This document shows positions 3,299 through 64,000 of a stretch of DNA of 64,000 nucleotides, piece by piece. The notes below the pieces were generated by a model. The model was given only the letters and a program-made list of their open reading frames with translations. It searched no databases and was not told the origin of the DNA. Numbering within the stretch: position 1 is the first letter of the stretch; each line of letters starts with the position of its first letter. Origin of the DNA: an uncultured Chloroflexia bacterium (lineage in GTDB: Bacteria; Chloroflexota; Limnocylindria; Limnocylindrales; CSP1-4). A program made the translations under genes and the position numbers. The stretch spans positions 237,176 through 301,175 of the forward strand of contig CAVVNQ010000002.1 in NCBI GenBank assembly GCA_963749705.1. Direction: 5' to 3'.

Positions 3299-3766
3299 TC
3301 AGGGTTCCGTCGTTCCCTCTCTCGCAGCGGTCCACCGGGCGTATCTCGGCGGCCAGTCGTCGGAGCTTGGCCGCGCACCGTAGAGCACATCCTCGACCAG
3401 GAGCTCGAAGGCCGGCGCATCGCCGACGCTCCAGTCCCAATCGGCGGCAAGGGATGCCCGCCTGACCGGGTCGTCGACCGGCCGCACCCGGCCGCGAACG
3501 AGGAACTCATTGGGGACCGCGGGGTCGAAGTGGGCGTGGAGGGCGTACCGGCCGTCCTGTTCGAGATCGCGCAGCTTCGGTGACCGGAGGATGAACGCGT
3601 ACAGCCCGCCGTCGACCACCCCCACCGTGATCGGGTGCGCCTGGGGAGGCTCGTCCCCCGAGACGGTGATCAGGAGCGCTTCGCCGTGGCCGGTCCGGTA
3701 CAGGAGCTCTCGGCCCATCGCGGCAATGTCCGGTGCCTCGGTCGCGAACTCACCCCAGGTACTCAC
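3299..3766 (-). CDS. Pyridoxamine 5'-phosphate oxidase-like (split-barrel flavin/F420-binding) protein
   Basis: GTG start at 3766; MSTWGEFATEAPDIAAMG...SPKLRDLEQDGRYALH, matching the typical SPKxxDLxxDGRYALH signature. Confidence 0.75.
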   Translation of the reverse strand: MSTWGEFATEAPDIAAMGRELLYRTGHGEALLITVSGDEPPQAHPITVGVVDGGLYAFILRSPKLRDLEQDGRYALHAHFDPAVPNEFLVRGRVRPVDDPVRRASLAADWDWSVGDAPAFELLVEDVLYGARPSSDDWPPRYARWTAAREGTTEP

Positions 3767-3795
3767 GTGCGATCTCCATTTCGTCTGTCGTTCGT

Positions 3796-5178
3796 TCAGG
3801 CGGTGCCGTCGAGCCGGCGTCGCGCCTCGTCGAACAGGCCGTTGAGGATGCGCGACGTCGAGGGGAACGCGTGGATCGTCTCCGCGAGCACGTCCACCGG
3901 CACCCTTGCCTTGATCGCGAGCACGCATTCGTGGATCGCGGCCGATGCGTCCGGGCAGGCCATCGCCGCCCCCACCAGCTCTCGCGTGGCGCGATCCACG
4001 ACGATCGTGACGTGGCCGGTCTCGGCTTCGACCGAGTACCCCTTCGACGAGTGGGGGAAGTCGGCGACGCACTCGAATGCATCGATCCCGGCATCGGTGG
4101 CCTGGTCGAGGCTGACCCCGACCGACGCCGCCTCGGGGTCCATGTACGTGGCGCGGGGAAGGGCGCGGTAGTCGGGCGTCACGGCCTCGCCCAGCGCCAT
4201 CCGGACGACCATCTCGCCCTGGTAGTGCGCCTGGTGGGTGTGGAGCTCCGGGCCCGCGGGGTCGCCCGCCACCCACAGGCCGTCCGCCAGCCGCAGGCTG
4301 CCGTCGCGACGGTAGGCGCCGGGTCCCGAGACCTCGATCCCGTACACGTCCAGCCCCAGGTCACGCGTCGGGAACTCGCGCCCGACCGCGAGCAGGACCG
4401 CGTGGCCCTCCGCGGTCGTCCCGTTGTCGAGCTCGATGACGTGGGCGCCGTCGGTCCCGGCGCCCGCGCGCGCCCGTATCGCACGCGACCCGGTCCGGAC
4501 GCTCACGCCGTCACGCTCGAGCGCGAACCGGACCGCCTCGGCGTTGCGGGGATGGTCCGTGGGCACGAGCCGCGGCCCGGACTGGACGACCGTGGTCGGC
4601 ACGCCGAACCGCGCGAAGACCTGGGCGAGCTCGCAGCCGGTCGGGCCGCCGCCGAGCACGAGCAGGCTCCGGGGCAGCTCGCGCGTCAGCGTCGCATCCC
4701 GGTTCGTCCAGGGCTTGGTCTCGGCGAGCCCCTCGATGGGCGGCACCTTGGACCCCGATCCCACCGCGACCACGATGTTGCGCGCCGCAAGCTCGTGGGT
4801 CACGCCGTCATGGCTGACCGTCACGCGGCCGCGCGCGGTGATCCGGCCCTCGCCGCGGTAGGTGACCGAGCCATCAGACTCGAGCGCCTTGACGTGCGAG
4901 GTGTCGTCGGGGTCGAGCGCATCCGTCGGGCGGTTGACCATGTAGTCGCGGCGATCGGATGCGCGCGACCACGAGTAGTCGGCGCCCGCCGCGTGCCGGT
5001 CGGCGCTGTGGAGCAGCGACTTCGACGGGATGCACCCGATGTGCGGACACGATCCGCCGAACCACCGGCGGTCGATGACGGCCGAGGTGGCGCCCAGCGC
5101 TCGCGCCTTGTGCGCGGCAGCCTCCCCGGCCGGGCCGGCGCCGATGATCACGAAGTCGAAGGTGTCCATGTCCGTCAT
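3796..5178 (-). CDS. Class I pyridine nucleotide-disulfide oxidoreductase (Lpd/MerA-like family)
   Basis: GAGPAG FAD motif, redox-active GGSCPHIGCIPSK, GGGPTGCE NAD motif and a C-terminal dimerisation domain ending IHAFPS. Confidence 0.88.
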   Translation of the reverse strand: MTDMDTFDFVIIGAGPAGEAAAHKARALGATSAVIDRRWFGGSCPHIGCIPSKSLLHSADRHAAGADYSWSRASDRRDYMVNRPTDALDPDDTSHVKALESDGSVTYRGEGRITARGRVTVSHDGVTHELAARNIVVAVGSGSKVPPIEGLAETKPWTNRDATLTRELPRSLLVLGGGPTGCELAQVFARFGVPTTVVQSGPRLVPTDHPRNAEAVRFALERDGVSVRTGSRAIRARAGAGTDGAHVIELDNGTTAEGHAVLLAVGREFPTRDLGLDVYGIEVSGPGAYRRDGSLRLADGLWVAGDPAGPELHTHQAHYQGEMVVRMALGEAVTPDYRALPRATYMDPEAASVGVSLDQATDAGIDAFECVADFPHSSKGYSVEAETGHVTIVVDRATRELVGAAMACPDASAAIHECVLAIKARVPVDVLAETIHAFPSTSRILNGLFDEARRRLDGTA

Positions 5179-5191
5179 CCTCGCCGAAATC

Positions 5192-5995
5192 TCACCCGAG
5201 CGCTCGCTGCCGTCGGGCTTCGTACAGCAGGACGGCGACCGCGATCGAGACGTTGAGGCTGTCGGCGACCCCGAGCATCGGCAGCCGGACGCCCGTCACC
5301 GCGTCACCGTCCCAGGCCGCGCTCAGGCCGTCGGCCTCACTGCCCAGGATGAGGGCGACCGGACCACGCAGATCGACATCGGTGTAGACGGACAGCGCGT
5401 CGACGCGCGCCGCGATCAGCGCGACCCCTTGTCCGGCCAGCCTGGCCCGAACGTCTGCGCTCGAGCCCGCGGCCACCGGGACGGCGAACATCGTGCCCAG
5501 CGATGCACGCACCGCGTTGGGGTTGAACAGGTCCGTGCGCGGATCTGCGGCGATCACGGCGTCGGCACCCGCCGCATCGGCTGTCCGCAGGACGGCGCCC
5601 AGGTTGCCCGGCTTCTCGACGCCTTCGACGACGACCACCAGCGGGTCATGGGGAAGGTGCAGCCCGTCGAGGGACAGATCCGGGATCCTGACCGTTGCCA
5701 CCACGCCCTCGCCCCGGTCGCCGTACGCCAGCCGGTCGAGGACCGTGCCGCTGACCACGGTCAGCGTCGCGCCGGCGGTCGTGGCAGCCGCAACCGCCGC
5801 ATGCCCCGCCTCGCTGAGCCGTGTCTCGTCGACGAACACCTCGGCGACCCTCGCGCCGCCCTCCAACGCCCGCGACAGCTCGCGTGCGCCGTCAAGAAGC
5901 GTCAACCCGGCGCGCTCACGCGTCCGCCGGTCCCGAAGTGCGGCCGCGGCGCGGATCCGCGGGTTGCGAAGGCTCGAGATGGTGGGCTCGGTCAT
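5192..5995 (-). CDS. TrmH/SpoU family RNA methyltransferase
   Basis: MTEPTISSLRNPRI..., EKPGNLGAVLRTADAAG, LGSEADGL and SLNVSIA SPOUT motifs. Confidence 0.92.
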   Translation of the reverse strand: MTEPTISSLRNPRIRAAAALRDRRTRERAGLTLLDGARELSRALEGGARVAEVFVDETRLSEAGHAAVAAATTAGATLTVVSGTVLDRLAYGDRGEGVVATVRIPDLSLDGLHLPHDPLVVVVEGVEKPGNLGAVLRTADAAGADAVIAADPRTDLFNPNAVRASLGTMFAVPVAAGSSADVRARLAGQGVALIAARVDALSVYTDVDLRGPVALILGSEADGLSAAWDGDAVTGVRLPMLGVADSLNVSIAVAVLLYEARRQRALG

Positions 5996-48806: not shown

Positions 48807-50744
48807 TCAGGCGGGGAGCGGACGCAGCTCCGGCGCCTCGAGCATCGTCGGTGAGCGGTCCACGGTCGGCCGCGCCTGCTGGGCGAACAGGAACAGCGCG
48901 AGCCGCGCGCGCGCCCGGTGCTGGCCGGGCAGGAACTCGAGGCCATGGACGAGACCGCCGCGGGGATCGCGGCGGACCGAGCGGACCACCGCGCGCAGGA
49001 CGAGCGGCGCACCGGGCTTCGAGAGCACCAGCCTGACCTTCGACCCCGGGACGATCTCCGTCCCCGCCACGACCCGGGCGCCGGCGGCCGACACGTCGCG
49101 GGCCTCCGCGGCAAAGTCGCCCAGCAGGGCCGGCAGCGCGACATCGAAGCGCACGCTGGCTCGCCGCTCCGGGGCGTACCGCAGCGACCGGATGCGCACG
49201 ATCGCGAGGCACACGAGCGCGACGTTGAACAGCAGCCAGCAGAAGGCGGCGATGACCGCGCCCGGCTCGGCATAGGTGACGAACGTGCGGCCGAGGAGCG
49301 TCAGCGCAAACCATGCCGCCGAGAGGAACGACGCCACCAGCAGCGCCCGAAGCGGCAACGGCACCCGGACGCGACTCCGGCCATCGCCCAGGCGGCCCTT
49401 GGGGGTGACCACGAACGCCGGTCGCCGGCGGGTCACCAGGGTCAGCGTGGCACGCAGGTTCGACGTCATCCGGACCAGCTCGAACACGATCGACAGGACC
49501 GGCCGGTGGCAGCCCCGGCTGAGGGCGAGCAGGGCCAGCTGCTGGAGCAGGAACGTGGACACGAATGCCGTCGCAAAGACTCGCAGGTCGGCGCGGATCG
49601 GGACGGCGCCCGTGAGCACGACGACCATCGGGAGGATCGCGAAGGCGAGCGTCCGCCAGGCGTCGAACCAGCCGAGCAGCGTGGCCGCGTACGACAGCCG
49701 CTGGGGCAGCGTCAGACCGGACACCCACAGCGGATTCTCGCGGCGCAGGACCTGCATCGCGCCGGTGCCCCAGCGCAGGCGCTGGAGCTGGTACGTGTCG
49801 GCATCGCCCGCCGCCAGGCCGCGCGCGAGCACCTCGTTGTGGTACGCGGTGCGCCAGCCGTGCCGGTGGAGCCGGATCGTGGTGTGGATGTCCTCGGTGA
49901 TCGTGTCCGTTGCGACGCCGCCGACGTCACGCAACGCGGCGACCCGGACCACGGCGCCGGTGCCGCACCAGAACGCACCGCCCCAGCGGTTCTTGCCCGG
50001 CTGGAGCATCCGGTAGAACAGCGCCTGCTCGTGGAACCGCTCGCCGTCGCCGGCCACCGCATCGTGCTCGAAGGAGTCGTGGTTGTAGAACTCCTGCGGC
50101 GTCTGGACGAGGGCGATCCGCGGGTCGTCGAAGTAGCCGACGGTCCGAACCAGGAGGTTGCGATCCGCGACGTGGTCGGCGTCGAGGACGGCGATCAGGT
50201 CGGCGTCGATCACGGTCAGCGCGTGGTTGAGGTTGCCCGCCTTCGCGTGGGCATGGTCCGTGCGGGCGAGATAGTGGACGCCGAGCGACCGTGCGAGCCG
50301 CTCCACCTCGGGCCGTGCGCCGTCGTCGAGGACCCATGTCTCGTGGCGCAGCCGGATCGCCCTGGCGGCGGCGATCGTGGGCAGCAGGATCTCGATGCCC
50401 TCGTTGTACGTGGGGACCAGGACCGCGATCCGCAGCGGCGTCGACCGGACGTCGCGGTGGGCCGGCCGCCGGTCCACGTCCCACAGCGAGAACGCGAACA
50501 GGGCGAGGCCGAGCGTCGCGTGGATCTCCAGCACCAGGAGCGGGATGGATGCCCACCACACGGCGAGATCGAGCGTCGCCGTCGCGCGCCAGGTGAGGTA
50601 GATCACGCTCGCGACGAGGGCGACGATGGCGATCCCGCGGACCACCAGCCGCCGGAGCAGGGGCTCGGGTTCGGGCAGCGCGGGGCCGGGCGCGGGGGCG
50701 CGCAGCCAGCCGAAAGCATCGGTCAGGGCTCGTTGGTTGGGCAT
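48807..50744 (-). CDS. BcsA/CelA-like GT2 processive glycosyltransferase with C-terminal PilZ domain
   Basis: PTYNE, DDG, HAKAGN, DADH, QTPQEF, FWCG, TED, QRLRW, FVVTPK; PilZ RRASVR...DVSAAG. Confidence 0.9.
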   Translation of the reverse strand: MPNQRALTDAFGWLRAPAPGPALPEPEPLLRRLVVRGIAIVALVASVIYLTWRATATLDLAVWWASIPLLVLEIHATLGLALFAFSLWDVDRRPAHRDVRSTPLRIAVLVPTYNEGIEILLPTIAAARAIRLRHETWVLDDGARPEVERLARSLGVHYLARTDHAHAKAGNLNHALTVIDADLIAVLDADHVADRNLLVRTVGYFDDPRIALVQTPQEFYNHDSFEHDAVAGDGERFHEQALFYRMLQPGKNRWGGAFWCGTGAVVRVAALRDVGGVATDTITEDIHTTIRLHRHGWRTAYHNEVLARGLAAGDADTYQLQRLRWGTGAMQVLRRENPLWVSGLTLPQRLSYAATLLGWFDAWRTLAFAILPMVVVLTGAVPIRADLRVFATAFVSTFLLQQLALLALSRGCHRPVLSIVFELVRMTSNLRATLTLVTRRRPAFVVTPKGRLGDGRSRVRVPLPLRALLVASFLSAAWFALTLLGRTFVTYAEPGAVIAAFCWLLFNVALVCLAIVRIRSLRYAPERRASVRFDVALPALLGDFAAEARDVSAAGARVVAGTEIVPGSKVRLVLSKPGAPLVLRAVVRSVRRDPRGGLVHGLEFLPGQHRARARLALFLFAQQARPTVDRSPTMLEAPELRPLPA

Positions 50745-50847
50745 GCGTCAACTGTCGATGGCGGTGCGCCGACGCGCCACGCTCCGGAAGGACTACCTGA
50801 CCCGGCCGATCGGGGGGTGCGCGAGACCACCCGGTATGCTGGCCGCC

Positions 50848-52164
50848 ATGAGCCCCCACACGACCATCGACCTCGCGCCGCCCGTCGAGAAGGCGTTCCT
50901 GCTCGCGGTCGACACGGGTGACGACCCCGGCTGGACGGCCGAGGACAGCCTGGCCGAGCTCGCCGCGCTGGCCGAGACGGCGGGCGCCGACGTGGTCGGG
51001 GCCGAGTGGCAGAACCGCCGCCATGTCGATCCCAACTGGTACGTGGGCAAGGGCAAGGCCGAGGAGATGCTCCAGGCGAAGTCCGAGACCGGGTTCGACG
51101 TCCTGGTCGCGGACGACGAGCTGAGCCCGGCGCAGCAGAAGAGCCTGGAGACGCTGCTCAACGTCAAGGTCATCGACCGCAGCCGGCTGATCCTCGACAT
51201 CTTCGCCCTCCACGCGCAGACGCACGAGGGCCGGCTCCAGGTCGAGCTCGCCCAGCTCGAGTACCAGCTGCCGCGGCTGACCCGCCTGTGGACACACCTC
51301 TCGCGCACGGGTGGCGGGATCGGCACCCGGGGCCCGGGCGAGTCACAGCTGGAGACCGACCGCCGGCTCATCCGCCAGCGGATCAAGAAGATGAAGGAGC
51401 GGGTCGACAACGTCCGCCAGCAGCGACAGACGGCGGCCCGTGGCCGCGATCGGCGCCTGTACTCGACGGTCGCGATCGTGGGCTACACGAACGCCGGCAA
51501 GTCGACCCTGCTCAACGCCCTCGTCGGCTCCGAGGTCGCGCGTGCCGAGGACAAGCTGTTCGCGACGCTCGACCCCACCTCGCGCCAGGTGAAGCTGGGC
51601 GACGGGCAGACCGCGATCGTGACCGACACCGTGGGCTTCATCCACAAGCTGCCGCACCAGCTGGTCGATGCGTTCCGGGCGACGCTCGAGGAGGTCACCC
51701 GCGCCGACGTCCTGGTCGAGGTCGTCGATGCGGCGGACACGCACCACGACGAGCACCGGGCGACGGTCCAGGTCGTCCTCGACGAGCTCGCCGCGGGCGA
51801 CAAGCCACGGCTCGCCGCGTTCAACAAGGCCGACCTCCTGTTCCCCGTCGCGGACGGCTCGAACCCTGCTCCCGCCGTTGGCGGCTCGGTGCTCGTGTCC
51901 GCGGTGACCGGGTTCGGGCTGGACACGCTGCGGGCCGAGATCGCCGCCCTGCTCGCATCACTGTGGGAGGACGTCGACGTCGCGGTGCCGTACGCTGCCG
52001 GCGAGCTGCTCGCGCGCGTACGCGAGCGGGGCACGGTGGACCTCGAGTACGGGAACCACGACGTGCGTGTCCGGGGCCGGATGGCGCCCGCGATGGCGGG
52101 TGAGCTGCGCGCCGCCGCCGACCGCTGGCGGGAGACGCTGGTGGCCGACGGGGTCACGTCCTGA
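50848..52164 (+). CDS. hflX: GTPase HflX
   Basis: GKGK, LILDIFA, QVELAQLEY, GPGESQLE, GYTNAGKS, LFATLD, DTVGF, NKAD. Confidence 0.97.
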   Translation: MSPHTTIDLAPPVEKAFLLAVDTGDDPGWTAEDSLAELAALAETAGADVVGAEWQNRRHVDPNWYVGKGKAEEMLQAKSETGFDVLVADDELSPAQQKSLETLLNVKVIDRSRLILDIFALHAQTHEGRLQVELAQLEYQLPRLTRLWTHLSRTGGGIGTRGPGESQLETDRRLIRQRIKKMKERVDNVRQQRQTAARGRDRRLYSTVAIVGYTNAGKSTLLNALVGSEVARAEDKLFATLDPTSRQVKLGDGQTAIVTDTVGFIHKLPHQLVDAFRATLEEVTRADVLVEVVDAADTHHDEHRATVQVVLDELAAGDKPRLAAFNKADLLFPVADGSNPAPAVGGSVLVSAVTGFGLDTLRAEIAALLASLWEDVDVAVPYAAGELLARVRERGTVDLEYGNHDVRVRGRMAPAMAGELRAAADRWRETLVADGVTS

Positions 52165-52166
52165 GC

Positions 52167-52767
52167 ATGCCCGGCGGGGCCACGCCGCCCGCCCGGATCG
52201 CCGGGTCGGTGCAATTGGAGGATGGCGCTCGCCTGACGTGGGTCCTCGCCGAGGGCCGGCGCGGCCGACGCTGGCGAGCCACGCTCCTGGCGCCCGACGG
52301 CCGCTTGGCGCGGGCGACCCTGCTTGAGGTGGACCTCGACGGCCGTCCGACGAGGCTCGAGATCGCCGGCCCCGACGGCCTGCTCACCGTTCATCCGGGC
52401 GACGACGGGCGTCGCCTCCACGGCAACGTCGTGCGCCCGACCGGGATCGACCACGTGGACCTGCCGTGGACGATCGATCACGCGCTGCTCGACGGCGGGT
52501 CGCCGGTCACGGTTGCGGTGGCCGTCGCGGCGCTGCGGGACCGGATCGGGGTAGGGGAGGGCCGCGCGATCGAGGTGGTCGAGGTGACACCCGACCTCGC
52601 CGTCCGCCCCGGGACGTGGACCGTCGACCGGCTGGCCGAGCGCCGCTGGCGCGTTCGCCGGCGCGGACGCCGGCGTCGAGCTGACCGTCGAGCTGGACGA
52701 GCTGGGCATCCCCGCAAGCCTCGGTGGGGGAGCCGCGTGGCCGCTGGAGCTCGAGCCGCGGCGATAG
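52167..52767 (+). CDS. Hypothetical protein (beta-rich); probable frameshift near 52660
   Basis: The plausible coding frame turns into Arg-rich noise at about 52660. The alternative frame continues ADAGVELTVELDELGIP...WPLELEPRR* to TAG 52767. Confidence 0.6.
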
Positions 52768-52817
52768 GCACGCTCGTCGCCATGGCGGGCTCCGCCGACC
52801 CGCCGTCGTGGACGGAC

Positions 52818-52867
52818 TGTGGACAACCGACCATCCCGGTCCCGCGATCGGCCCAAGTCGTGGATAA
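52818..52867. promoter_or_regulatory. Two DnaA-box-like 9-mers (TGTGGACAA; CGTGGATAA)
   Basis: The reverse complements TTGTCCACA (52818-52826) and TTATCCACG (52859-52867) are in the same orientation, 41 bp apart. Confidence 0.6.
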
Positions 52868-52872
52868 GCCCG

Positions 52873-52901
52873 TTGTGCGGGCCCCGGGGCTCCCGTAATA
52901 T
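52873..52901 (+). promoter_or_regulatory. Sigma70 promoter TTGTGC-N17-TAATAT
   Basis: Near-consensus hexamers with a 17-bp spacer. The predicted +1 (about 52908-52909) coincides with the start of a long hairpin. Confidence 0.7.
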
Positions 52902-52908
52902 TCGGTTT

Positions 52909-52994
52909 GCCCGAAGGGGCCAGAAGGAACGGCGACGGAGCCGCAGGTGCTTGCATCAGCGGAGACCGGGCCGGGCCGGAGGGTTCCTTCGGGC
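52909..52994 (+). ncRNA. Candidate ~86-nt rod-shaped small RNA (6S-like architecture, family unassigned)
   Basis: 13-bp closing stem (52909-21/52982-94, two G-U pairs), 8x8 internal loop, interrupted upper stems, G(CUUG)C apical loop, and its own promoter. Confidence 0.6.
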
Positions 52995-53038
52995 GTTTCG
53001 TTGCGTCCGGCAACCACGCGCTCGGTATCATCGTCGCG

Positions 53039-54649
53039 ATGGATGGGGACCCGACAGCCGCGACAGATCGCGCCGCGACACATCGCGCCAGGTCCGCGCC
53101 GTCATGGCGTCGCCGCCTGCCCGTCCACCCGTTGCTGTTCGCCGTGTACCCGGTCCTGTTCCTGTACGGGGAGAACCTGGGCGAGGTCGAGCCTGGTGAC
53201 CTGGTCGCGCCCCTCGCCCTGGTCCTGGCCGGGACGATCGCGACCTACCTGATCGCCCGGATCCTGCTTCGCTCCACCGGCCGGGCAGCCCTCGCAACGA
53301 CCCTGCTGGTCGCCGTCCTGTTCGCCCACGGTCGCGTGCTCGCGCTGGTCGCCGGGAGCCCGATCGCCGGCGGGCGGCTGCTGCTGGTGTCGGGCGCCAT
53401 CGTCGTGGTGGGCCTTGCCGCGGTCGTCCTCGTCCGGCGCGATCCCCGCCGGCTCAACAACGCGCTCGACATCGTTGGTGCGGTCCTCGTGGTCGTGTCG
53501 CTCGTCGGCATCGTGAGCTACGAGGTCCCGCGGGCGGTGCGAGGGACCGAGGCGGGGGACGGATCGGACGCGATCTCCTCGAGCGGCACGACCACGCGGG
53601 ACATCTACTACATCGTCGTCGAGGACATGGGCTCACCCAGGACGCTCGAGGAGCACTTCGGGCTGACCGACACGCACGCCTTCGACTGGCTGACCGAGCT
53701 CGGCTTCGAGGTGCCCGCGGACAGCAAGGTGAACTACGGCAAGACCGTCCACATGCTCGCGTCGACGATGAACATGGAGTACCTGGACGGCGTCGCGGCG
53801 GCCGCCGGCACGGACTCCTCCGACTACCATCCGCTGTTCCGGCTGGTCGACGACAACTCCGTGGCCCGGTTCCTCAAGGGCCAGGGCTACCGATACGTCC
53901 ATATCGGCTCCTGGTGGGATCCGACCGAGAAGAGCTCGATCGCCGACGTGAACTACGGGATCTCGGCGCCGTCCGACTTCGCGACGGCGCTGCTGGACAC
54001 GACCATCCTGCCGGCGATCCTGGATCGCCTGCCGCGGATCGGGATCCGCCTGCCGATCGACGTCGAGCTCACCGGCGAGGACGCCCAGTACGAGGGGGCG
54101 CTGGTCGGGTTCCGGAAGCTCCAGGACGTCGCGACGGAGCCTGGCCCGAAGTTCGTGTTCGCGCACATCCTCGTGCCCCACAAGCCGTACGTGTTCACCG
54201 CGGACGGGCGGCGCCTGACGCCCCAGGGGCGAAGCGGGCATACCCGGGCCGAGAGCTTCCTCGGCCAGGCGCTGTACGTCAACAGCCGTCTCGAGGACAT
54301 CTCGCGGACGCTGCTCGCCGGCCCCGAGGCGACGCGGCCGATCATCATCATCCAGACCGACGAGGGGCCCAACCCGACGGGTCTCGATGACGATGCCGCG
54401 AGCTTCACGTGGACCGCCGCGACGCAGCAGGACCTGGAGATCAAGTACCCGATCCTCAACGCGTTCTACCTGCCCGGCCTCGCCGACACCGGCGTGTATC
54501 CGGGGATCACGACCGTCAACACCTTCCGGCTGGTCCTGAGCAAGTACTTCGGCGCCGACCTGCCGCTCCTGCCCGACCGCCTGTTCATCTACCACGACAA
54601 GGCGCACCCCTACGACTTCACGGACATCACGGACCGCCTCAGCCCCTGA
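53039..54649 (+). CDS. Membrane-anchored alkaline-phosphatase-superfamily (sulfatase/LtaS-like, NoeB-like) enzyme
   Basis: About 5 N-terminal TMs; DIYYIVVED, NYGKT (Thr nucleophile position), FAHILVPHKPY, IIIQTDEG, VNTFR. Confidence 0.8.
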   Translation: MDGDPTAATDRAATHRARSAPSWRRRLPVHPLLFAVYPVLFLYGENLGEVEPGDLVAPLALVLAGTIATYLIARILLRSTGRAALATTLLVAVLFAHGRVLALVAGSPIAGGRLLLVSGAIVVVGLAAVVLVRRDPRRLNNALDIVGAVLVVVSLVGIVSYEVPRAVRGTEAGDGSDAISSSGTTTRDIYYIVVEDMGSPRTLEEHFGLTDTHAFDWLTELGFEVPADSKVNYGKTVHMLASTMNMEYLDGVAAAAGTDSSDYHPLFRLVDDNSVARFLKGQGYRYVHIGSWWDPTEKSSIADVNYGISAPSDFATALLDTTILPAILDRLPRIGIRLPIDVELTGEDAQYEGALVGFRKLQDVATEPGPKFVFAHILVPHKPYVFTADGRRLTPQGRSGHTRAESFLGQALYVNSRLEDISRTLLAGPEATRPIIIIQTDEGPNPTGLDDDAASFTWTAATQQDLEIKYPILNAFYLPGLADTGVYPGITTVNTFRLVLSKYFGADLPLLPDRLFIYHDKAHPYDFTDITDRLSP

Positions 54650-54705
54650 GCGACCGGCGACGGCGACGGCCCAGAGCGGCAGCCGGGGCAGGGGAGGGGT
54701 GCAGA

Positions 54706-56119
54706 TCAGCGCGAGGCGCGCCGACGGAGATGGAACAGGACGCGGGTGCTGTCGTCGAGGGGAACCTCGGCCACGGTCTCCCAGGCCGGCGCCATGGCCG
54801 CACGGAACCCCTCGAGCGTGTAGCCGGGGAAGACGTCCTCGCGCGAGGACAGCAGGAACTCGACCATGGGATCGTCCTTGGGTACGAACTCGACGATGGC
54901 CTGGGAGCCGAGCTCGGCGAACCAGTGGCCGATGGCGTCGAGCGGCACGTTGCGCCCGATCGCGAGGTGATGCACGAGTGCGAGCGCGAGGATGACGTCG
55001 GCATTCGCCCGATCCGCGAGCGACTGCCGCTCAACGCCAGCCCAGCCCAGCCCCGGGCTCGGGTTCGCCACGTCGGCGACCAGCGGCAGGATCGACGTCT
55101 GGCCGTCGCGACGGACGGCCCGGTAGTGGAGCTCGGCCGCCCCCGGATCGAGGTCCAGGGCGATCACGTCATAGCCGAGATCGGCGGCGATCCGGCTGAA
55201 CCGGCCGGTGTTCGCACCCAGGTCCCAGGCGCGCGACCCCGCGGCCGCGCCGAGCATCGTCGCGACCACCCGATCCTTGGCCTCGGCCGCCGCCGCTCCA
55301 TAGCTCGTGCGCCCGGCGTAGTCCGCCCACTCGGTCGCACCGGGCTCCCAGTGGAGCTTGCCCACGGCCGAGCGGAGGCTGTCGATGAGCGCCTGGCGTC
55401 GGATGTCGCTCATCCGCGGGGCGGTCCGGGGCCGTTGCACGCCGCCGCCCGGTGCCAGGTCCCGCCGGCGATCGAACCGCCGCTCGGCCCGGGCGTGGAG
55501 GTGGATGTGCGACGCGAGGCCGAACCGGAGCCATGTCCGCCGCGGCAACAGCGTGCTCGTGAGGTCGAGGGGGAGGCCATCGACGTAGTCCCGCAGCAGC
55601 ACGCCGCACCGGACATCGCGGTACGCCATCAGCGCCAGCGGCGCGAGGAAGTGCTGGCAGAACTGGCGGTAGCCGACCCACGGCGCACCCGGCTGCGCCG
55701 TCTCGAACGACAGCGTGTCGATCAGGACCGGACGACCGCTGATGGAACTGGATGTTGTAGGCGCTCGCGTCCTTGAGCGTGAACCCGGCGGCCTGCGCCG
55801 CGCGCTGGATCTCGAGGGTACGCAGGGCCGCGTCCTGGAGCTGCCCGAACGTCCACTCGTACGGATACGAGATGAAGCCCACCGGCTCGGGGGCGATGAC
55901 CGCGTGCGCGGATGGAGGATCGGCCGCGAGGGCCGTGTCGACCGGCTCGAAGGGGATCAGCCAGCCACGATCGACCAGGTGGGACATGAACCCGCTGTGG
56001 ACCAGGGCGTCCCAGTGCTCGGCGTACGACGTGTTGATCTGACGCAGCAGCCGACCGTCGCGCCGGTAGACGAAGCCGCTGGGGTCCCGGTACGAACCTG
56101 GATCGCGGGTGATGCTCAA
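54706..56119 (-). CDS. NoeA-like SAM-dependent methyltransferase with kinase-like N-domain; frameshift near 55740
   Basis: SYRDPSGF, FISYPYEW, LKDASAYNIQF / GRPVLID, YRQFCQHFLAPL, WADY, DLGANTGRFS, LALALVHHLAIGRNVPL, EFVPKDD. Confidence 0.85.
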
Positions 56120-56131
56120 TCCGGCGCCGGG

Positions 56132-56317
56132 TCAGTCAGTGCCCGCGCCACCGTCCGTTCCGGGATCCTCGTCCCGGCCCCGGGATCGAACCACCCGGAT
56201 GGCCCGCGCCAGCTGGGTGCGCAGGATCAGCGGGAGCGCGACGATCGCGGCGATCGCCGCCTGCAGCAGCATGCTGCCGGTGCCCGCGTCGATGTACGCC
56301 AGGAGCGCGTGATGCAT
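56132..56317 (-). CDS. Small single-TM protein of the AYIDxGTGS type (61 aa)
   Basis: SD GGAGG, then MHHALLAYIDAGTGSMLLQAAIAAIVALPLILR...; directly upstream of the NoeA-like gene. Confidence 0.75.
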   Translation of the reverse strand: MHHALLAYIDAGTGSMLLQAAIAAIVALPLILRTQLARAIRVVRSRGRDEDPGTDGGAGTD

Positions 56318-56366
56318 CCGACCCTCCACCCAGGCGCCACGGTGCATTGACCACGCGGACGCCGCG

Positions 56367-56387
56367 CTGATGATAACGCGGCGTCAA
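56367..56387. promoter_or_regulatory. Single CTGATG-N9-CGTCAA palindrome (same motif as upstream of rny)
   Basis: CTGATG ATAACGCGG CGTCAA in the divergent promoter region. Confidence 0.55.
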
Positions 56388-56505
56388 CCCGAACAAACGA
56401 TCGATGTCGAACGGACGGTCAATTCCGCCGGACACCGATGCATGCCCGGGACGACAGCGCGGGCCCGGCGACACCGGGACGCGGCAGCACGGCGGACATG
56501 CGACG

Positions 56506-58590
56506 ATGCGCGTCGTGACACCGATCACGTCCGCCGAGCGCCGGGTCAGCTGGCTGGCTGCGATGGCTGCCGTCGCCCTGATCGAGGTCGTGCTGATCGC
56601 GACGCCGGCCTCGTACCCGTCCTACGACGAGGCCAAGTACATCGGGATCGGGTACTCGTTCCTGGCCGGCCTGGGCCCCCGGACGGCGTTCGGCGAGACG
56701 TTCGTCCCACACTCGCCGCTGTGGTCGGCGATCGTCGACGCGCCATCGGCCTGGTTCGGCGTCGATGCCCTCTCCTGGGGCCACCTGCTCAACGCCATCG
56801 CGGTCGGCGGGCTCCTGCTCCTGGTCGCCTGGTTCGGGTGGCGGATCCGGCCCGTGGTCGGCGCCGCGGCGGCCGCCGCGTACGCGGGCTTCCCATACCT
56901 GTACGAGCTTGCCCGAACGTCCCGGCTTGATGTCCCTGCAGCCGCGCTGTGCCTCACCTACGTCGTCGTGGGCCTGATGGCGCTCCGACGCCGCTCGTTC
57001 CGATGGGGCCTCGCGGCCGGGCTCGTGTTCGGCATCGCGTTCCTGGTCAAGGAGATCGCGCTCCCGTTTGCACCCGTGCCATTCCTGGTGGCCTTCGCGA
57101 ACGGCGTTCCATGGCGAGCCCTGGTTCGGGTGCTCGCCGGTGTGGTCCTCACGGCTGCGGTGTCCACGAGCTGGTGGTTCATCGAGTATGCCGACATCAC
57201 CGGCAGCGTCTACCGGCTGGGCACGCCGGCCTGGACGCTGATCCCGCTCGTGATCGTGGGGGCGATCGTCGTCACCGGCGGTCTGTGGGCCTCCCGCGGC
57301 ACGACGGCAAGCGCAGGTGCGACCGAGGCGGAGACGGTCGCGGGCGGGGGCATTGCGCGCCTCGACCCGGCGCGTCGCTCCATCAGCTGGCTGTTCGCGG
57401 CGGCCTGGTTTGCGCTGCTGACCGCCTTCTTCCAGGTCCAGGGCACGCTCCAGGGAGCGGGCCTGTTCCAGCTGAGCCAGTACAAGGTATACGCGGCGTT
57501 GTGGCTGCCGACGTGGCCGATCCGGATCGTCGCGGCCGCGGCCGTGGTCGGAGCGTTGCTCGCCGTCATCCAGCTCGTCCGCTCGCCGAGGGGCCGCCTG
57601 CGCGACGGCCTCGACCTCCTGGGCATGAGCCTCCTGTGCACGCTCCCGCTCATCCTGCTCGTGTTCGCGGTCGGGGAGCCGCCGCGCAACTACCTCGCGC
57701 AGCTCGGGTTGTTCATCGCCTTTTCCGCCACCGGCTGGATCGGCCTGGTGGAGTGGGGGATCGTTCGCCTGCGCACGCTCGCGCGGGCGTCCCATGGCAC
57801 GGCCCGGACCGACGCCCCGATCGATCGCCGGATCGTGGGCGCCGGGCTCGCGGCGGTGCTGGCGGCCGCCACCGTCGGCCTGGGCAGCCACGCGATCGCC
57901 CACGGGACGTCATCGAGCGGGATGGCCCGCGAGGCCGCGGTGGACTCCGTCGCGGCGTGGGTCGAGGCGAACGTCCCGTCGGGTACCGCGATCGGCTTCG
58001 GCTCGTTCCTCGGCTACGAGATGGCCCTGCCGCTGCGAGGCGAATGGCCGCTGCGGCACCTCGTGCAGGTGGTCACGGTCGGCGACGCGCAGGCGACCTA
58101 CGGGCTTCGCAGCTACGGAAGCCCGCGCTCCGACGACTGGCTGGCGATCGACGGCGTCGAGCGCCGGTCCTACCAGTACTCCACCTTCCGGGCTGCCGCG
58201 TTCGCGAATGCCGTGCGGGCGGGCGGCCTCGGGTACTTCGTCTACGCAACGGGCACCACGACCAGCGTGCCGTCGCTGCTCGGCGCGTTGACGCCCGATC
58301 ACGGGTTCACGCTGGCCAAGGACTGGACCTTCCCGGTCACCACATCGGCCGGCAGTGACGCCACGGTCGACGTCGCGATCTACCGCGTCGACCTGGCGAA
58401 CGTCGACTTCTCGGACAGCCCGATCTTCATCACCGCGTCCGCGCTCGAGCGCCTGACGAACCTGTTCGCGAGCGCGGGCGCCGCGGGTCGTTCAGCGGCG
58501 GCCAACCTGGCGGCCCGGGTCATGGTCAGCCCGCCGGATCCGTCGGGGCCTGCGCTGCTCGCCCGGCTTCGGGCCGTTTCCAGGCCCTGA
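56506..58590 (+). CDS. GT-C fold membrane glycosyltransferase (ArnT/PMT_2, GT39/83-like)
   Basis: SYDEAKY acidic loop after TM1, HSPL, SRLDVP, FLVKE, many TMs and a C-terminal extracellular domain. Confidence 0.82.
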   Translation: MRVVTPITSAERRVSWLAAMAAVALIEVVLIATPASYPSYDEAKYIGIGYSFLAGLGPRTAFGETFVPHSPLWSAIVDAPSAWFGVDALSWGHLLNAIAVGGLLLLVAWFGWRIRPVVGAAAAAAYAGFPYLYELARTSRLDVPAAALCLTYVVVGLMALRRRSFRWGLAAGLVFGIAFLVKEIALPFAPVPFLVAFANGVPWRALVRVLAGVVLTAAVSTSWWFIEYADITGSVYRLGTPAWTLIPLVIVGAIVVTGGLWASRGTTASAGATEAETVAGGGIARLDPARRSISWLFAAAWFALLTAFFQVQGTLQGAGLFQLSQYKVYAALWLPTWPIRIVAAAAVVGALLAVIQLVRSPRGRLRDGLDLLGMSLLCTLPLILLVFAVGEPPRNYLAQLGLFIAFSATGWIGLVEWGIVRLRTLARASHGTARTDAPIDRRIVGAGLAAVLAAATVGLGSHAIAHGTSSSGMAREAAVDSVAAWVEANVPSGTAIGFGSFLGYEMALPLRGEWPLRHLVQVVTVGDAQATYGLRSYGSPRSDDWLAIDGVERRSYQYSTFRAAAFANAVRAGGLGYFVYATGTTTSVPSLLGALTPDHGFTLAKDWTFPVTTSAGSDATVDVAIYRVDLANVDFSDSPIFITASALERLTNLFASAGAAGRSAAANLAARVMVSPPDPSGPALLARLRAVSRP

Positions 58591-58629
58591 TCCGCAGCGT
58601 TCGCGCGAGGGGCTCCGTGCGCTGATGGC

Positions 58630-58657
58630 ACTTCCGATAAGGTGAGTTATGTCTGTC
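58630..58657 (+). other. dif-like XerC/XerD recombination site
   Basis: ACTTCCGATAA-GGTGAG-TTATGTCTGTC has the 11-6-11 layout with the inner ATAA-N6-TTATGT hallmark. It lies in an intergenic gap at the GC-content break. Confidence 0.75.
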
Positions 58658-58760
58658 TACCCACGCAACGCAGAAGGCACGTACGTCGTCGGGGGCCGGG
58701 TAGCATCTTTGGTGCCGCCGTGCCATTGAACTTGGCACAGGTGCCACTAGACTGACCCAG

Positions 58761-59892
58761 ATGGCAAACCGATTTCAACGCGTGCGTGGCAACTCTGCGA
58801 TCGATCTATTTGCGGGCGCTGGTGGGGCAACCCAAGGCCTACGTCAAGCCGGCATCGACGTGCTCGCCGCCATCGAAATGGACGACGACGCAGCGGATAC
58901 GTATGCAGCTAATCACCCTCGGGTCACCCTTAGGCGCTCTAGCATCCGGGACGTCCCTGCCGAGCGTCTCCGGCGGGGTCTGCGTCTCCGTCGTGGGGAC
59001 CTCACGCTTCTCCAAGCGTGCCCGCCGTGTCCCAGTTGGTCATCCCTTGGCGCCAGCTCGATGAAGATGATCGAAAGGATCTAGTTGATGAGGTCTGGCG
59101 CTTCATCCGCGCCTTTCGTCCAAAGTCATTCGTGCTTGAGAACGTACCCGGTTTGACGAACGACAACCGCTTCCAGTCATTGCTCGCGAGTGCCCGGTCG
59201 TCTGGGTATGGCGTGAGTACGTACCGGGTGGACGCGGCCGATTTCGGTGTGCCCCAAAGACGAGTCCGGTTGATCGCGATTGGCGCCTTCGGCATCTCTG
59301 CAGATCAATTCCCTCAGGATCTGCCGTCCGCGCTGCCCGATGGCTTTGACCGATCACCACGCGTGGTTGGCCCAGTCTTTGAGGCGACCGCCAAGCTTGT
59401 CGACGATCCCTTGCACGTCGGTAGAAGCCACTCGGAGGTTGTAGTCGAACGGATTCGCGCAATTCCCGAGGCCGGCAATCGCTTCGATCTACCAAAGGAC
59501 CTGGAGCTACCTTGTCATCAACAGCTCGGCAGCCGGAACGCGACAGCGGCATACGGGCGCATGAAGGCTGGCCAGCTTGCCCCGACCTTGACGACGCGTT
59601 GCCCACACCCTCGTGTGGATCGTTTGTTCATCCAACGGAACACCGTGGGATCACACTCAGAGAGGCCGCCCTCCTCCAGACATTTCCAGGTGAGTACGAC
59701 TTCAAAGGCACCTACGGCGCGAAAGAACGACAGATTGGAAACGCAATTCCGGTCAGGATGGCGGAAGGGGTTGCTCTAATCGTGCTGAGCTTGCTTCGGC
59801 GGCGCGATCTTGCGGTGCATGCGAGAACAGGTCACGAGGCGGTGGGTTCGGTCGTCGGAAGTCCTCTCGTCGGAGCCGCCAAGAGCGCCTGA
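58761..59892 (+). CDS. DNA (cytosine-5)-methyltransferase; two frameshifts (about 59050 and 59620)
   Basis: Motif I DLFAGAGG, IV CPPC, VI ENVPG, VIII QRRVR, IX ITLREAALLQTFP and X QIGNAIP are spread over three frames. Confidence 0.9.
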
Positions 59893-61906
59893 TCTGGGAT
59901 GCGATCCAGGAAGTCCTGGTGCGATCGCCTCGTGGAGACGAGGAGTTCCTCCCACGTCCTGATCGTAACGTGTTCGTCCTGCAAGGGGGCCTTGGCCAAG
60001 GGGCTCCGGAGCGAGAGGCGATCACAGACGATCGTCAGTCGCGGTTCCTTGAATTCTGACGCGATTTCCCGGTTTTCAAGCAGGAATGCTCGCAGTGCCT
60101 CGAGGTATCGATAGGCGCGTTCCATTTCCTCGTCGGTGAGGCCGTGGTCCGGGCGCTTGATTTCGACCACTTCTAAGATGCCCTGATCACTGATCAACAC
60201 AAAGTCGGGCTCACGACTCGGGTCGTTGATGGCAGAGGTGACGATCGGGACGCCATTACGTTTCTCGTACCAGGACTGAAACGCTATTCGAGATCGCTCC
60301 AGACGCTCATTCTTCGAAAGGGGCGTCCAGTCGGGGTGCAGATCCACGGCGCTTGCTCGATGAGCAGTTGTAGCTGATTCTCCAAGGTCTCGCCCGTCCG
60401 GATCAACACTCCCAAGCGCACGAGCGTTTCGACGCGTTCACGAGCAACCTGACCGAGCGAGTAGATCTCAGCAACGCTTGCCCGCCTGAAGAGATCAACC
60501 ACCATCGCCAGCGTGTTTGTCGTGGTTTGCGCCGCTTCGTTGAGTGCGTCCACGAGCGTGCGATGCGGGCCAACAGCAAACGCGAGCTCGAGGAGACGTT
60601 GACGATACTCCGGATCGCGAATGGACTCCTTGTCGGCACGACCGACGAACAGACGTGCCACAAGGCGAATTGATGACCGCATCTCTCGGTCTGTCGGTAC
60701 GCGGGCTTCGAGAAGTTCGTCGAGCCTGGTTTCGTTTGCGAAGTCCTCCCATGTTTGGGCGCGCAATGAGGTTTCCGCCTTGCCGGCAATTTCGCGGATG
60801 ATCCCCCGCCCCCAAGTCCTCAGGGCCTCACCCTTCTCTGAGTTCCAGATGATGTCCTGGCGGTCCGATCGCACGAGGTCTTCGTCTTCGTCGATCCAGT
60901 CCGCGTGCACTTCGCCGACAATGTAACTACGGAGCTTGAACTCTCCGGTGAAACCAGCCGGAATGTCAAAGTCTCGCGTTTGAGCGACGAGCTTTCCTCT
61001 GGCGAAGATCCGTACCCCCGCCATAGCCTCGTCCTTGTAGGGATCCGCGGCGTATGCAACCCAACCCTCGACCGGAAGAGAGTCCCCATTGAACGGAACC
61101 GGACGATCCGACAAGTCCTGTCGAGTGTCGGCAAGTTCGGCGATTGCTAGTTGGCCGACAGTGATAGTGGGATTGCTTTCGCGGCTGTCGCTGATCTCAA
61201 CTCGCCAATCGACTTGTTCCAGCCCGAACCGCGCAGCAAGTTGTCGGTGAAGCGACTCAGCGTCGGGCACCCTCTTCCGCCCGAATTCGCGGAGGGAGAT
61301 GGTCGTTCCGGTCGAGTTGGCTCGGGTTCCGTCTCGGGAGCCGACGATCGGGTGGTAGTCGAAGTCGGAGGGGCTTACGATGTCGTCGTAGCGCAGCAGA
61401 AGGTGGGATACCGGAAACGTCCCGTCATCGCCAGGCACCCCGCCTGCTGTCACTACCTCGATCTCGCGGCAGACGCCAAAGGGCGCGAGCTTGCCAATCC
61501 CCTTCCGGCCCATGACAAGCCGGCGCTTGACAGCCGTTCGTTCGCCGCGCGTCGCTCGCCGGTTCGCCCCTACTTCGAGGTAGTGGGCGTTGACTTCCTC
61601 AGCAGTCATTCCCTGGCCGTCGTCACTAATAGTGATGACGTGCCCGTGATCGATGGCGGTCCCGCCTTGCACGGAGGCGAGCAAGGTATCAAAGGGAAGT
61701 GTGATGCGAACGGTCTCGGCGTCTGCGTCATAGGCGTTCGCGATCAGTTCCGCCAACACTGCTGCGACGCGATCATACATACGGATGCCGAGCTGATCGA
61801 TGGTCAATCGAGAAATGCGCATTCGGTACTTGGGCTCGGTCAGACTCAGGTCCTGCGCTGGCGGCAAGATCGTCGATCCATCTCGATCTGTGCGGTCGCT
61901 GGTCAT
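59832..61906 (-). CDS. GHKL (MORC/HATPase_c_3) ATPase fused to C-terminal PD-(D/E)XK nuclease; frameshift near 60345
   Basis: ELIANAYDA, DDGQGM, GRKGIGKLA, GTTI and an S5-like region, then ENQLQLLIEQAPWI/LHPDW...EPDFV...VVEIKRP. Confidence 0.85.
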
Positions 61907-62075
61907 AGGGTCATCAGTCCTGCTATCGGTGAAATGTATCGTCGGGGATCGCTGCCGTCGCAGAAGAAGGCGCCGGCAGACGCTGGATTCGGCGAAGGAA
62001 GACGCCGCGCACAGGCTCGTCTATGTTTTCCAAACGTAGCACCCAAGGGGACCTCTGGATCGAGCACGATGACTA

Positions 62076-62702
62076 CTACAGTTCTCCGCCGTCCGACCAT
62101 CGACACTCTCGGCAGCGGGCGCCCGCATACTCGTCGCCACGCTGAAAGTCTGTGTCATGCCATCCCTCAATTGACGCCAGGCCAGCGCCGCAGTTGGGGC
62201 ATCCGACGATTGCGCCATAACCGGGGAAGTAGCCTACGTCAATGCCGGCGTATTCAAGGGTCGCCTGAATCGCCATTAGCCACTCGCGCTCGCCGGCAAG
62301 CCCCAGAATTTCTGCCGCGACCTGGGAATCGGGAAGGTCCCCGCGCAAGTACCGAAGGTCGGCCAGCAACGCCGGGAATTCCGTTTCGTCCAGGAGAACG
62401 GGAATGACGCGGAGGCTCCCGTCTTTGATTCCTCTTGCGAGGGCTGCTGCCAGCTCGCGCCCGACCCACTTCGACCGAGCCGCGTCTTCGGACCAGATCA
62501 GAACGAATGTGTCGAACGCCGCTAGGCCCTCGTTGATTTTCGCAGTTAGTGAGTCCCCAGCACGGATCTCCCATTCGTCGAACCAGACCTCTGCGCCTGC
62601 GAGCGCTAGCTGCGACCCGAGGCGGCGCGCGAAGGGCTTGTCAGCAGCGTTGTGCGACAAGAACACTTTCGACGCCTGCCGCCCCTCCGACGCGCCAGTC
62701 AT
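62076..62702 (-). CDS. TIR domain protein with C-terminal C4 zinc ribbon
   Basis: KVFLSHNAADK, VWFDEWEIRAGDSL, SKWVGREL (catalytic Glu position), VIPVLL, then CPNC...CREC. Confidence 0.9.
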   Translation of the reverse strand: MTGASEGRQASKVFLSHNAADKPFARRLGSQLALAGAEVWFDEWEIRAGDSLTAKINEGLAAFDTFVLIWSEDAARSKWVGRELAAALARGIKDGSLRVIPVLLDETEFPALLADLRYLRGDLPDSQVAAEILGLAGEREWLMAIQATLEYAGIDVGYFPGYGAIVGCPNCGAGLASIEGWHDTDFQRGDEYAGARCRECRWSDGGEL

Positions 62703-63853
62703 TGGCGATGATCGACGTTCACGGACACGATGAGCGCCACCTTCAGGGCGCTGCCGGACCCGCACGCCGGGTCCTTGTCGCGCGGCGTCGCCTTCGTCAG
62801 CTTGTGGCCGGAAAGGAGGAGCTCGGTCACCCGCGTCTGCATCGCCACGAACTCGCGGCGGAGCGGGCGCAGGATCACGGGCTCGACAAGCTTCCAGATG
62901 GCGTCGCGGTCCGTGTAGTGGGCGCCCAGCTGGGCGCGCTGGTCAGGGTCGAGGCCACGCTCGAACAGGGTGCCGAAGATCGCGGGTTCGATGAGCGCCC
63001 AGTTGAGCCGGCTGACCTCGAGCAGGGTCGAGATCTCGGAGCCGGTGAGCGGGAGGACTTCGCCGGTGTCGAACAGGCCGCCGTTGAACCAGTCGATCTC
63101 CTCGGTCCCGGACAGGCCGCCGTCGTTGGCCATCTTCGCGAACAGCTCGCCAAGCGCGGTGCTGAACACGTCGCTGCGGCCCCTCGATGCCTCGCTGAGG
63201 CGCATGAAGATGCCCTTGGGCAGCAGGCCCGCATCCTCGGCGAACAGGCAGAACAGGATGCGGTCCAGGAAGTGGGCGACCTTGTCCGGGTCGTGGCCTC
63301 GATTGCGGAGGCTCTGCGCGATCTCGGCGAAGTGGCCGGCGGCCTTCTCGGTGATCTGGGCCGGCCGGAGCCTGGGCCGGAGCTCCTCGGGCGCCGTGAA
63401 CACGTCGCGCAGCGTCTGAAGCGCTGTCGAGGGATCGTCGGCCGCCAGGTCGTCGAGCGTGATCGTCGTCAGGACCGGGCTCAGGCCGGTGAAGTTGGTC
63501 CGGATCTCGATGCTGTCGAGGTCGCTCACGATGAGCAGGGGCGGGTTGCCCAGGTCGTCCTTGTAGTTGAGGAGCTGGAGGTACGCCGCCTTCAGGTCCT
63601 TCTTGTGGCCCTTGTACTCCCAGGCGAAGAAGCCGCGCTTCCAGACGTCGGCGAAGCCGTCCCCTCCGCCGGCTTTCTCGACCCGGCGCTCGAAGGCGTA
63701 CTGCTCGCCGGTGGGGTCGGCTTCGTGGGGCGTGGGCTCCCCCACCATCCGGCACAGATCGATGAAGTGCTCCTGGGCCGCGGCCTTCTCGGTCGTGGTG
63801 GAGCCGCGCCACTTCAGCGCGAAGGCGGCTGGGGTCAGGGTCGGGGCGCTCAC
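62699..63853 (-). pseudogene. MmeI-like (type IIG/IIL) restriction-modification enzyme, truncated after MTase motif I
   Basis: EKAAAQEHFIDLC, GFADVWKRGFFAWEYKG nuclease, FCLFAED, FNGGLF, IFGTLFE, LGAHYT, DPACGSG, then an abrupt stop with no NPPF/Y motif or TRD. Confidence 0.8.
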
Positions 63854-63999
63854 GACGGTGAGGGCGTGACGGTGAATGGATGCATGGTGCCAACTATCAG
63901 GGTTGCGACCTGCGCCATCGTGCCCGAAGCGAGGAACCAGTAGAAGGCGCCCGCGAGCAGGATCACGCCGGCGACCTGGACCATGAAGCCTTGCGCGCC
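63850..63999 (-). CDS. 3' end of a membrane protein gene (starts beyond the window)
   Basis: Open frame GAQGFMVQVAGVILLAGAFYWFLASG...TPSPS*; its TGA overlaps the GTG of the MmeI-like gene. Confidence 0.55.
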   Translation of the reverse strand, partial: GAQGFMVQVAGVILLAGAFYWFLASGTMAQVATLIVGTMHPFTVTPSPS

Positions 64000-64000
64000 C

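Follow-up and report, generated by a model that had tools for sequence, protein, structure and literature searches.

Does a defence island that begins exactly at a dif-like site owe its position to the Xer recombinases that act on such sites? We addressed this question for a window of 64,000 nucleotides (nt) from an uncultured soil bacterium (G000:C2:237176-301175; G000 denotes this assembly of 3.6 Mb in 22 contigs), in which a 28-bp dif-like site at 58630–58657 separates GC-rich DNA from a low-GC block of restriction-modification (R-M) and TIR-domain genes. A sequence-only reading of this stretch had proposed that anti-phage cassettes accumulated here by XerCD-mediated integration, in the manner of integrative mobile elements exploiting Xer (IMEX) or of pdif modules. 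We compared 70 genomes of the genus including G000, the relatives being labelled Gnnn. The 28-bp site is very probably the lineage's genuine dif. It lies within a region of fast turnover, and the foreign DNA beside it probably arrived by ordinary routes and not by Xer-catalysed integration.

The site lies on the forward strand, reads ACTTCCGATAA-GGTGAG-TTATGTCTGTC and has the 11-6-11 layout that had been claimed for it. The XerC-side arm spans 58630–58640, the centre 58641–58646, and the XerD-side arm 58647–58657, with GATAA and TTATG forming an inner inverted repeat. This 28-mer is unique in G000; a search of all 22 contigs (3.6 Mb) gave nothing else with up to six arm mismatches. The full pattern (≤3 mismatches) is found in 12 of 24 relatives within the genus and in none of 16 genomes of a second family. 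Conservation across the genus centers on a 24-nt core at 58630–58653, ACTTCCGATAA-NNNNNN-TTATGTC, which occurs with up to two mismatches in 63 of the 70 genomes (G000 included) and in none when the reversed pattern is used as a control. The core is present once in 61 genomes; two copies, located at contig ends, were seen in G020 and G056 alone. Neither of the two apparent tandem pairs was retained: the one in G056 is a single site split across two contig ends, and the one in G020 stems from two populations in one bin, which are 93.5% alike in their common left segment. The inner arms, CCGATAA and TTATGTC, are the same as those of the Frankia alni dif given by Kono et al. (2011, PMC3025954).

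The position of the site on the chromosome agrees with the claim that dif marks the terminus. In two relatives assembled as single contigs, the two arcs between dnaA and dif are in the ratio 54/46 (G006) and 53/47 (G059). The proposed check of cumulative skew gave a local G-C maximum at dif in G006; in G000, where the dif contig C2 covers one side only, the skew is positive toward dif on C2 and negative away from dif on C11. Across the whole genome of G006, sampled at 20 spaced pieces of 20 kb, the skew is weak and too noisy for the terminus to be placed, and we relied on the local skew profile and the position of dnaA instead. This noise is the one observation in favor of the idea that the conserved 24-mer is some other single-copy regulatory or recombination site and not dif. 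We find that idea hardly credible in view of the 11-6-11 layout, inner arms identical to those of the proposed Frankia dif, the single copy about opposite dnaA, and the presence of Xer genes. Contig C2 encodes one XerD-like and one XerC-like gene; one of the two recombinases passes NF001399 (321 bits, cut-off 279), and neither reaches the equivalog cut-offs of TIGR02224 or TIGR02225. Two more tyrosine recombinase genes, adjacent, divergent, and of 348 amino acids each, lie at G000:C6:173632-174817. They score as Xer-like below the cut-offs and may belong to a mobile element in another part of the genome.

In the right, XerD-side arm, the four outermost bases differ from those of the F. alni dif given in PMC3025954. 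That this arm deviates from the typical sequence had been noticed before and holds true; that the deviation betrays a hybrid att site does not. When 37 distinct dif loci are aligned with 60 nt on each side, conservation stops at the 24-nt core on both sides, and the four outermost positions of the right arm are variable in every species, including those that have housekeeping genes beside dif or lack an island. Because these 4 nt vary throughout the genus, the deviation is a genus trait and not an integration scar. The dif core itself is kept constant by selection.

What surrounds this constant core changes from species to species. We took 20-kb regions around dif from eight species, from two G020 contigs, and from 20 further species with long contigs; the 29 related genomes with retrieved flanks all represent different species. 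Their contents beside dif differ, as seen across species and not among close strains. On the right, the first 10 kb hold type III R-M genes in G010 and G016, fragments of GmrSD/NsnA in G008, and a DRT-type reverse transcriptase together with IS110 and an IetA-like ATPase in G020:C11. PD-Lambda-2_C is found in G065, an HNH protein in G067, a fragment of HmaA/DrmD in G082, and a TIR-like protein in G062, and MmeI-type genes or their remnants also occur. A VanW-domain gene serves as the right core marker, at +2.0 to +6.3 kb in G006, G015, G001, and G003.

R-M, TIR, GmrSD, DRT, and similar genes occur in 13 of 30 right flanks, compared with 0 of 14 random 10-kb windows of G006 (Fisher p = 0.0034, a value that overstates the enrichment because the species are kin and not independent). 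Nine of the 13 positive flanks share the MmeI-type gene, and four flanks of the first set (G001, G003, G006, and G015) were judged mainly from Pfam. The comparison of relatives at this junction, which had been suggested as a check, therefore yields variable and defence-enriched content, and the right flank is a variable, defence-rich slot across the genus. In G020:C11, the reverse transcriptase (best match RT_UG23) and the IS110-family transposase lie directly right of dif (2758–5306 of the retrieved locus), and a degraded copy of this reverse-transcriptase region (66% nt identity) is located right of dif in G020:C10.

The left flank varies as well and, in the 37-locus alignment, diverges at dif as abruptly as the right one. 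Its last widely syntenic core gene encodes the GTPase HflX (50626–52164, forward strand). An hflX homologue is present in all eight loci of the first set, miaA and hflX are syntenic on this side, and the G005 homologue carries the Pfam domains. Homology to G000 ends at ∼53014 in nearly all relatives. The following 5.6 kb of G000 (53015–58629) form a variable block of native GC content that encodes proteins of 580, 307, 71, and 728 amino acids, the last with a PMT_2 domain. This block is absent from most relatives and common in part only to G020:C11, G081, and G065; other species have VapBC pairs, Rce1-like, ADH, or APH genes after hflX. The two dif contexts of G020 differ on both sides at once. 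Pairs of a MazE-type antitoxin and a PIN toxin (80 and 135 amino acids) lie left of dif in G006, G008, G016, and G003, ending 43–44 bp before dif in G008 and G016, and several species have more PIN, Fic/Doc, and HTH pairs to the left and right of dif.

The profile PDLC03627, which detects the MmeI-type gene, matches in 30 of the 70 genomes of the genus, and in 16 of these the gene is on the dif contig, 0.25–8.3 kb from dif on the side of the XerD arm, always transcribed toward dif. Matches away from dif are found in G067, G069, G058, G060, and G003. The reading frame is intact in G005 (914 amino acids), G041, and G052, frameshifted in G008 and G009, and interrupted by the end of a contig in G020, G043, G045, G051, and G074. 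Six genomes, G000, G016, G059, G065, G081, and G084, keep only the 5′ part, which ends at profile positions 428, 81, 97, 99, 213, and 146, respectively.

In G000, this 5′ remnant of an MmeI-family type IIG R-M gene spans 384 codons on the reverse strand (62699–63853) and matches PF20464 and PF20465 as well as PDLC03627 (5e-102, positions 3–426 of 1136). Its open reading frame ends after codon 384, just past the motif PACGSG for binding of S-adenosylmethionine (SAM), and homology to the genes of relatives begins at 62768. The remnant is 82% identical to the G005 protein at the amino acid level, which is within the range of neighboring core genes, and the simplest reading is therefore that the MmeI-type gene is old and vertically inherited. 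It appears to be the ancestral tenant of the XerD-arm side.

Between dif and this remnant, the composition of the DNA changes. The GC content is 0.721 for 1–53014, 0.708 for 53015–58629, 0.606 for 58658–62700, and 0.682 for 62701–64000, so that the drop from 0.71 to 0.61 coincides exactly with the right edge of dif and with the start of the defence genes, as had been stated. The four gene types named earlier (methyltransferase, GHKL nuclease, TIR-Zn, and MmeI-like) are all present, three of the four island genes do point at dif, and the left-hand genes are mostly on the forward strand. A gene caller based on codon usage skipped the low-GC island genes, and we used a caller based on GC3 together with homology instead; the island was annotated by profile searches with Pfam, PADLOC, and NCBIfam.

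The first island gene encodes a C5 cytosine DNA methyltransferase (58761–59892, forward strand). It is spread over three frames (58761–59084, 59018–59779, and 59512–59892) with breaks near 59050 and 59610; pieces of PF00145 match at profile positions 3–82, 84–161, and 270–319, and PADLOC matches MTase_II/DruM. Next to it, on the reverse strand, lies a gene for a restriction enzyme of the BbrUII/HgiDII family (59832–61906; PF13589; REase_II PDLC03419), which consists of a GHKL ATPase part (60284–61906) and a C-terminal PD-(D/E)xK-like part (59832–60347) with a frame break near 60341. Against NF050001, the enzyme scores 211.7 bits, below the cut-off of 550, over profile positions 1–499 of 659. 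A 728-residue homologue spans both frames, with residues 3–559 in one and 589–702 in the other. Among 400 other genomes of the class, we found three homologues of the enzyme, all distant, and the one in G052 is on a contig other than that of dif. Plasmids gave only distant homologues (25–30%), some beside dcm genes.

Three frame breaks within ∼3 kb are unusual, given that frame switches affect only two of 56 large orthologues in other parts of the bin. One public soil-metagenome run (X1) matched the window, with a tenth of the sampled words present and with short contigs. An X1 contig of 151 nt (depth 3) has one extra base behind 60341, and frame arithmetic then joins both open reading frames of the restriction enzyme. 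The break at 60341 may thus be a variant or an error, and the gene may be intact in the X1 population. No joints were found in the short X1 contigs, whose coverage lies outside the methylase frame breaks.

The TIR-domain protein is encoded on the reverse strand (62076–62765; PF13676, 2.3e-27; PADLOC PDC-S66, ThsB-like) and has a cysteine-rich, Zn-ribbon-like C-terminal tail. The likely start codon of its gene, the ATG at 62702, shares bases with the TGA that ends the MmeI remnant (ATGA, 62699–62702), and the TIR gene may be translated from the old transcript of the MmeI-type gene. With respect to Thoeris, the match of the TIR protein to ThsB models is weak to moderate, and neither Pfam nor PADLOC finds a ThsA-like gene in the island. 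All island genes belong to known families and are partly decayed, and this is not the undescribed system that the sequence-only reading had seen in them.

Is any trace of Xer-mediated capture left in this segment? According to this alternative, the cassettes entered as circles with a dif-like attP, or as pdif-type modules, and were integrated by the host's XerC/XerD, the distal hybrid sites having since decayed or lying beyond the contig end. Such an origin, to which we give a small but real chance, would suit an island that has no integrase and whose junction is flush with the edge of dif. At least eight distinct kinds of defence cassette between dif and the MmeI-type gene across species, and the erosion of the latter from one side only, also speak for it. 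However, with up to five mismatches allowed in the 18 conserved arm bases, no second dif-like site exists in G000, either in the 5.4 kb of assembled island or in the rest of the assembly. Across 12 related loci, the same search gave a single hit: in G010:C3, a direct site with 4 of 18 mismatches lies 116 bp right of dif and is the sole near-site in the loci scanned.

A second, weaker candidate is an inverted dif-like sequence on the reverse strand at 61906–61933, between the start of the restriction gene and the TIR gene, which agrees with dif at 10 of 12 inner and 11 of 18 conserved positions. Together with the near-site of G010, it counts in favor of Xer-dependent capture, but secondary sites are not enriched: the loose inner pattern (≤2 of 12 mismatches) occurs nine times in the 3.6-Mb genome, which is chance level, and twice in 582 kb of the relatives' flanks compared with five times in 400 kb of background. 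The sequence at 61906–61933 is thus probably due to chance.

Other marks of a mobile element were sought in the same segment. Direct or inverted repeats flanking the cassettes are limited to short pairs at chance level, and no phage DNA similar to 58658–62700 was matched. Searches with Pfam and PADLOC for genes of phage, plasmid replication, or conjugation gave only the R-M and TIR genes in the island. No integrase was found in the assembled island, so that the intact second dif and the integrase for which a downstream search had been suggested are both missing from the assembled 5.4 kb. The R-M module was not seen in any other sequence context among the 400 genomes of the class. Xer-dependent capture is further at odds with the loss of part of the neighboring gene, which integration at dif would not remove, with the variability of the left flank, and with an outer arm that varies genus-wide, including species without an island. 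The proposed XerCD-mediated accumulation of cassettes accordingly finds no support in second sites, repeats, or phage matches.

Several observations nevertheless weigh against arrival by ordinary routes. Homology to every relative ends at 58653–58655, which places the foreign DNA flush with the outer edge of dif, and the weak inverted site marks the very border between R-M pair and TIR gene. Contig C2 ends at window base 64000, where the island runs off the assembly, and a second site may lie on its unassembled far side; no pair of genomes is close enough for breakpoints to be mapped at the base level. Above all, the six truncated MmeI-type genes that are fully assembled all keep their dif-distal 5′ end, with at least five different end points. 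This erosion, always from the side of dif, is the most interesting pattern of the locus, and its polarity fits repeated events anchored at dif. It could mean that dif is a docking point for cassettes, with XerC/XerD or events of termination and dimer resolution repeatedly inserting or swapping DNA at the edge of the XerD arm and eating into the MmeI-type gene. We regard this as improbable. If true, the role of dif for defence genes would somewhat resemble that of the attachment site of an integron, without a dedicated integrase or a lasting second site.

The sharp junction at dif might also have arisen in the computer, if C2 joined the left flank of one population to the right flank of another at the dif core. 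The core genes of the right flank indeed occur twice, on C11 and at the end of C15, collinear and with 85–96% identity, and therefore the bin holds two related populations right of the terminus. The two copies (C11:1-116433 and C15:431281-515241) run in opposite orientation and are collinear over ∼80 kb at 85–96% nt identity; contamination estimated from marker genes is 1.3%. C11 is likely the continuation of C2, because in G084 and G065 the MmeI remnant is followed by genes whose counterparts lie at the start of C11. In addition, two dif contexts occur in the G020 bin, 93.5% alike over the segment they have in common, and in 14 of 63 genomes a contig starts no more than 4 kb from dif, which suggests that assemblies often break beside dif. 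Among the sites near a contig start (<4 kb), the flank of the XerD arm is missing in 11 cases and the other flank in five, a bias that fits more strain-level heterogeneity on the island side.

Yet a common core of 24–28 nt is too short to mislead most assemblers, and C2 runs unbroken through dif. Contigs of X1 match both sides of dif without mismatch (for example 58129–58328 and 60456–60606; none is shown to bridge dif), and 15 other genomes have their MmeI-type gene on this side of dif too. We therefore consider a chimeric join very improbable.

The comparisons directly support the view that the site is dif, that both flanks vary, that defence genes are enriched, and that the MmeI-type gene is ancestral and has been eroded; from these findings we infer the route of entry. 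According to the preferred reading, turnover by ordinary routes, a region of ∼10 kb (from ∼53015 to beyond 64000) with dif mid-way, at which XerC/XerD would resolve chromosome dimers at the replication terminus, exchanges its gene content quickly. Its ancestral state included an MmeI-family type IIG R-M gene on the side of the XerD arm, transcribed toward dif. In G000, the dif-proximal two-thirds of this gene and the DNA between gene and dif would have been replaced by a recent foreign segment of ∼4 kb and low GC content with an R-M pair of the HgiDII/BbrUII type and a TIR gene. Such replacements probably came about when related lineages exchanged the whole dif region by homologous recombination, together with illegitimate insertions and deletions bounded by the indispensable dif.

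A non-coding element outside this turnover region is located at 52800–53014 (core ∼52885–53012), between hflX and the variable block. It is conserved in the genus at 73–93% nt identity; in it, repeated GTGGAC boxes and one box resembling TAGGAT precede a predicted RNA. This RNA would form an invariant long-range stem of 12 bp (TGCCCGAAGGGG with TTCCTTCGGGCG) and an inner hairpin; it has no match in Rfam, and covariation is thin (6 of 32 pairs), as most pairs never vary. Neither tRNA genes nor Rfam families were found in 50000–64000.

For this uncultured soil genus, the analysis provides a well-supported dif sequence with the 24-nt core ACTTCCGATAA-NNNNNN-TTATGTC, and it points to the DNA at the side of dif as one of the main slots in which the genus exchanges genes for restriction and other defences against phages. 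Proof that Xer enzymes are behind this exchange would extend IMEX-type biology to high-GC Gram-positives (the host being taken as actinobacterial) and to defence genes. In a literature search, no description of an actinobacterial hotspot for defence genes at dif came up. The locus clearly exemplifies a hotspot beside the terminus, and it advises caution, in that an island beside dif does not by itself imply Xer-mediated integration.

Among known systems, IMEX elements, which lie between two directly oriented dif-like sites, include CTX-phi, TLC-phi, and VGJ-phi of Vibrio, the gonococcal genetic island, and LME-1 of Legionella. The island of G000 resembles them as integrase-less foreign DNA directly against dif. 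In contrast to IMEX, its assembled part shows neither a second dif-like site nor genes of phages or conjugation, and there is no sign of a circular form; its insertion truncates a neighboring gene, and both flanks of dif vary. Modules of the pdif type reside on Acinetobacter plasmids and are flanked by inversely oriented XerC/D and XerD/C sites. They share with our locus a small R-M module between dif and a weak inverse dif-like sequence, whereas the second site here agrees at 11 of 18 positions, which is chance level, and the module is chromosomal and not plasmid-borne.

In domain content, the R-M pair is like the type II systems of the HgiDII/BbrUII family (NF050001), in which a C5 methylase is paired with a GHKL-type restriction enzyme; it differs from them in a score under the family cut-off and in genes that are frame-broken in the assembly. 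The MmeI-family type IIG enzymes comprise PF20464, PF20465, and PF20473, and the intact relative in G005 carries all domains of the family, with N-terminal nuclease, spacer, methylase, and target recognition in a single protein, whereas the remnant of G000 has only MmeI_N and MmeI_hel, without the methylase and target-recognition parts. Compared with the predicted actinobacterial dif sites of PMC3025954, the site is alike in its 28-bp 11-6-11 layout, its single copy, its terminal location, its identical inner arms, and the Xer genes in the genome. It deviates from them in the outer 4 nt of the XerD-side arm, which vary within the genus, in contrast to the other arm, conserved at all 11 nt.

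Integrase-less hotspots and defence islands between core genes are described in PMC5635113 and PMC10121019. Like the hotspots portrayed there, the locus shows fast turnover in one slot between conserved flanks, enrichment in defence and toxin–antitoxin genes, and numerous decayed genes. What sets it apart from those accounts is a slot centered on dif, with an ancestral MmeI-type gene that has been worn from the dif side.

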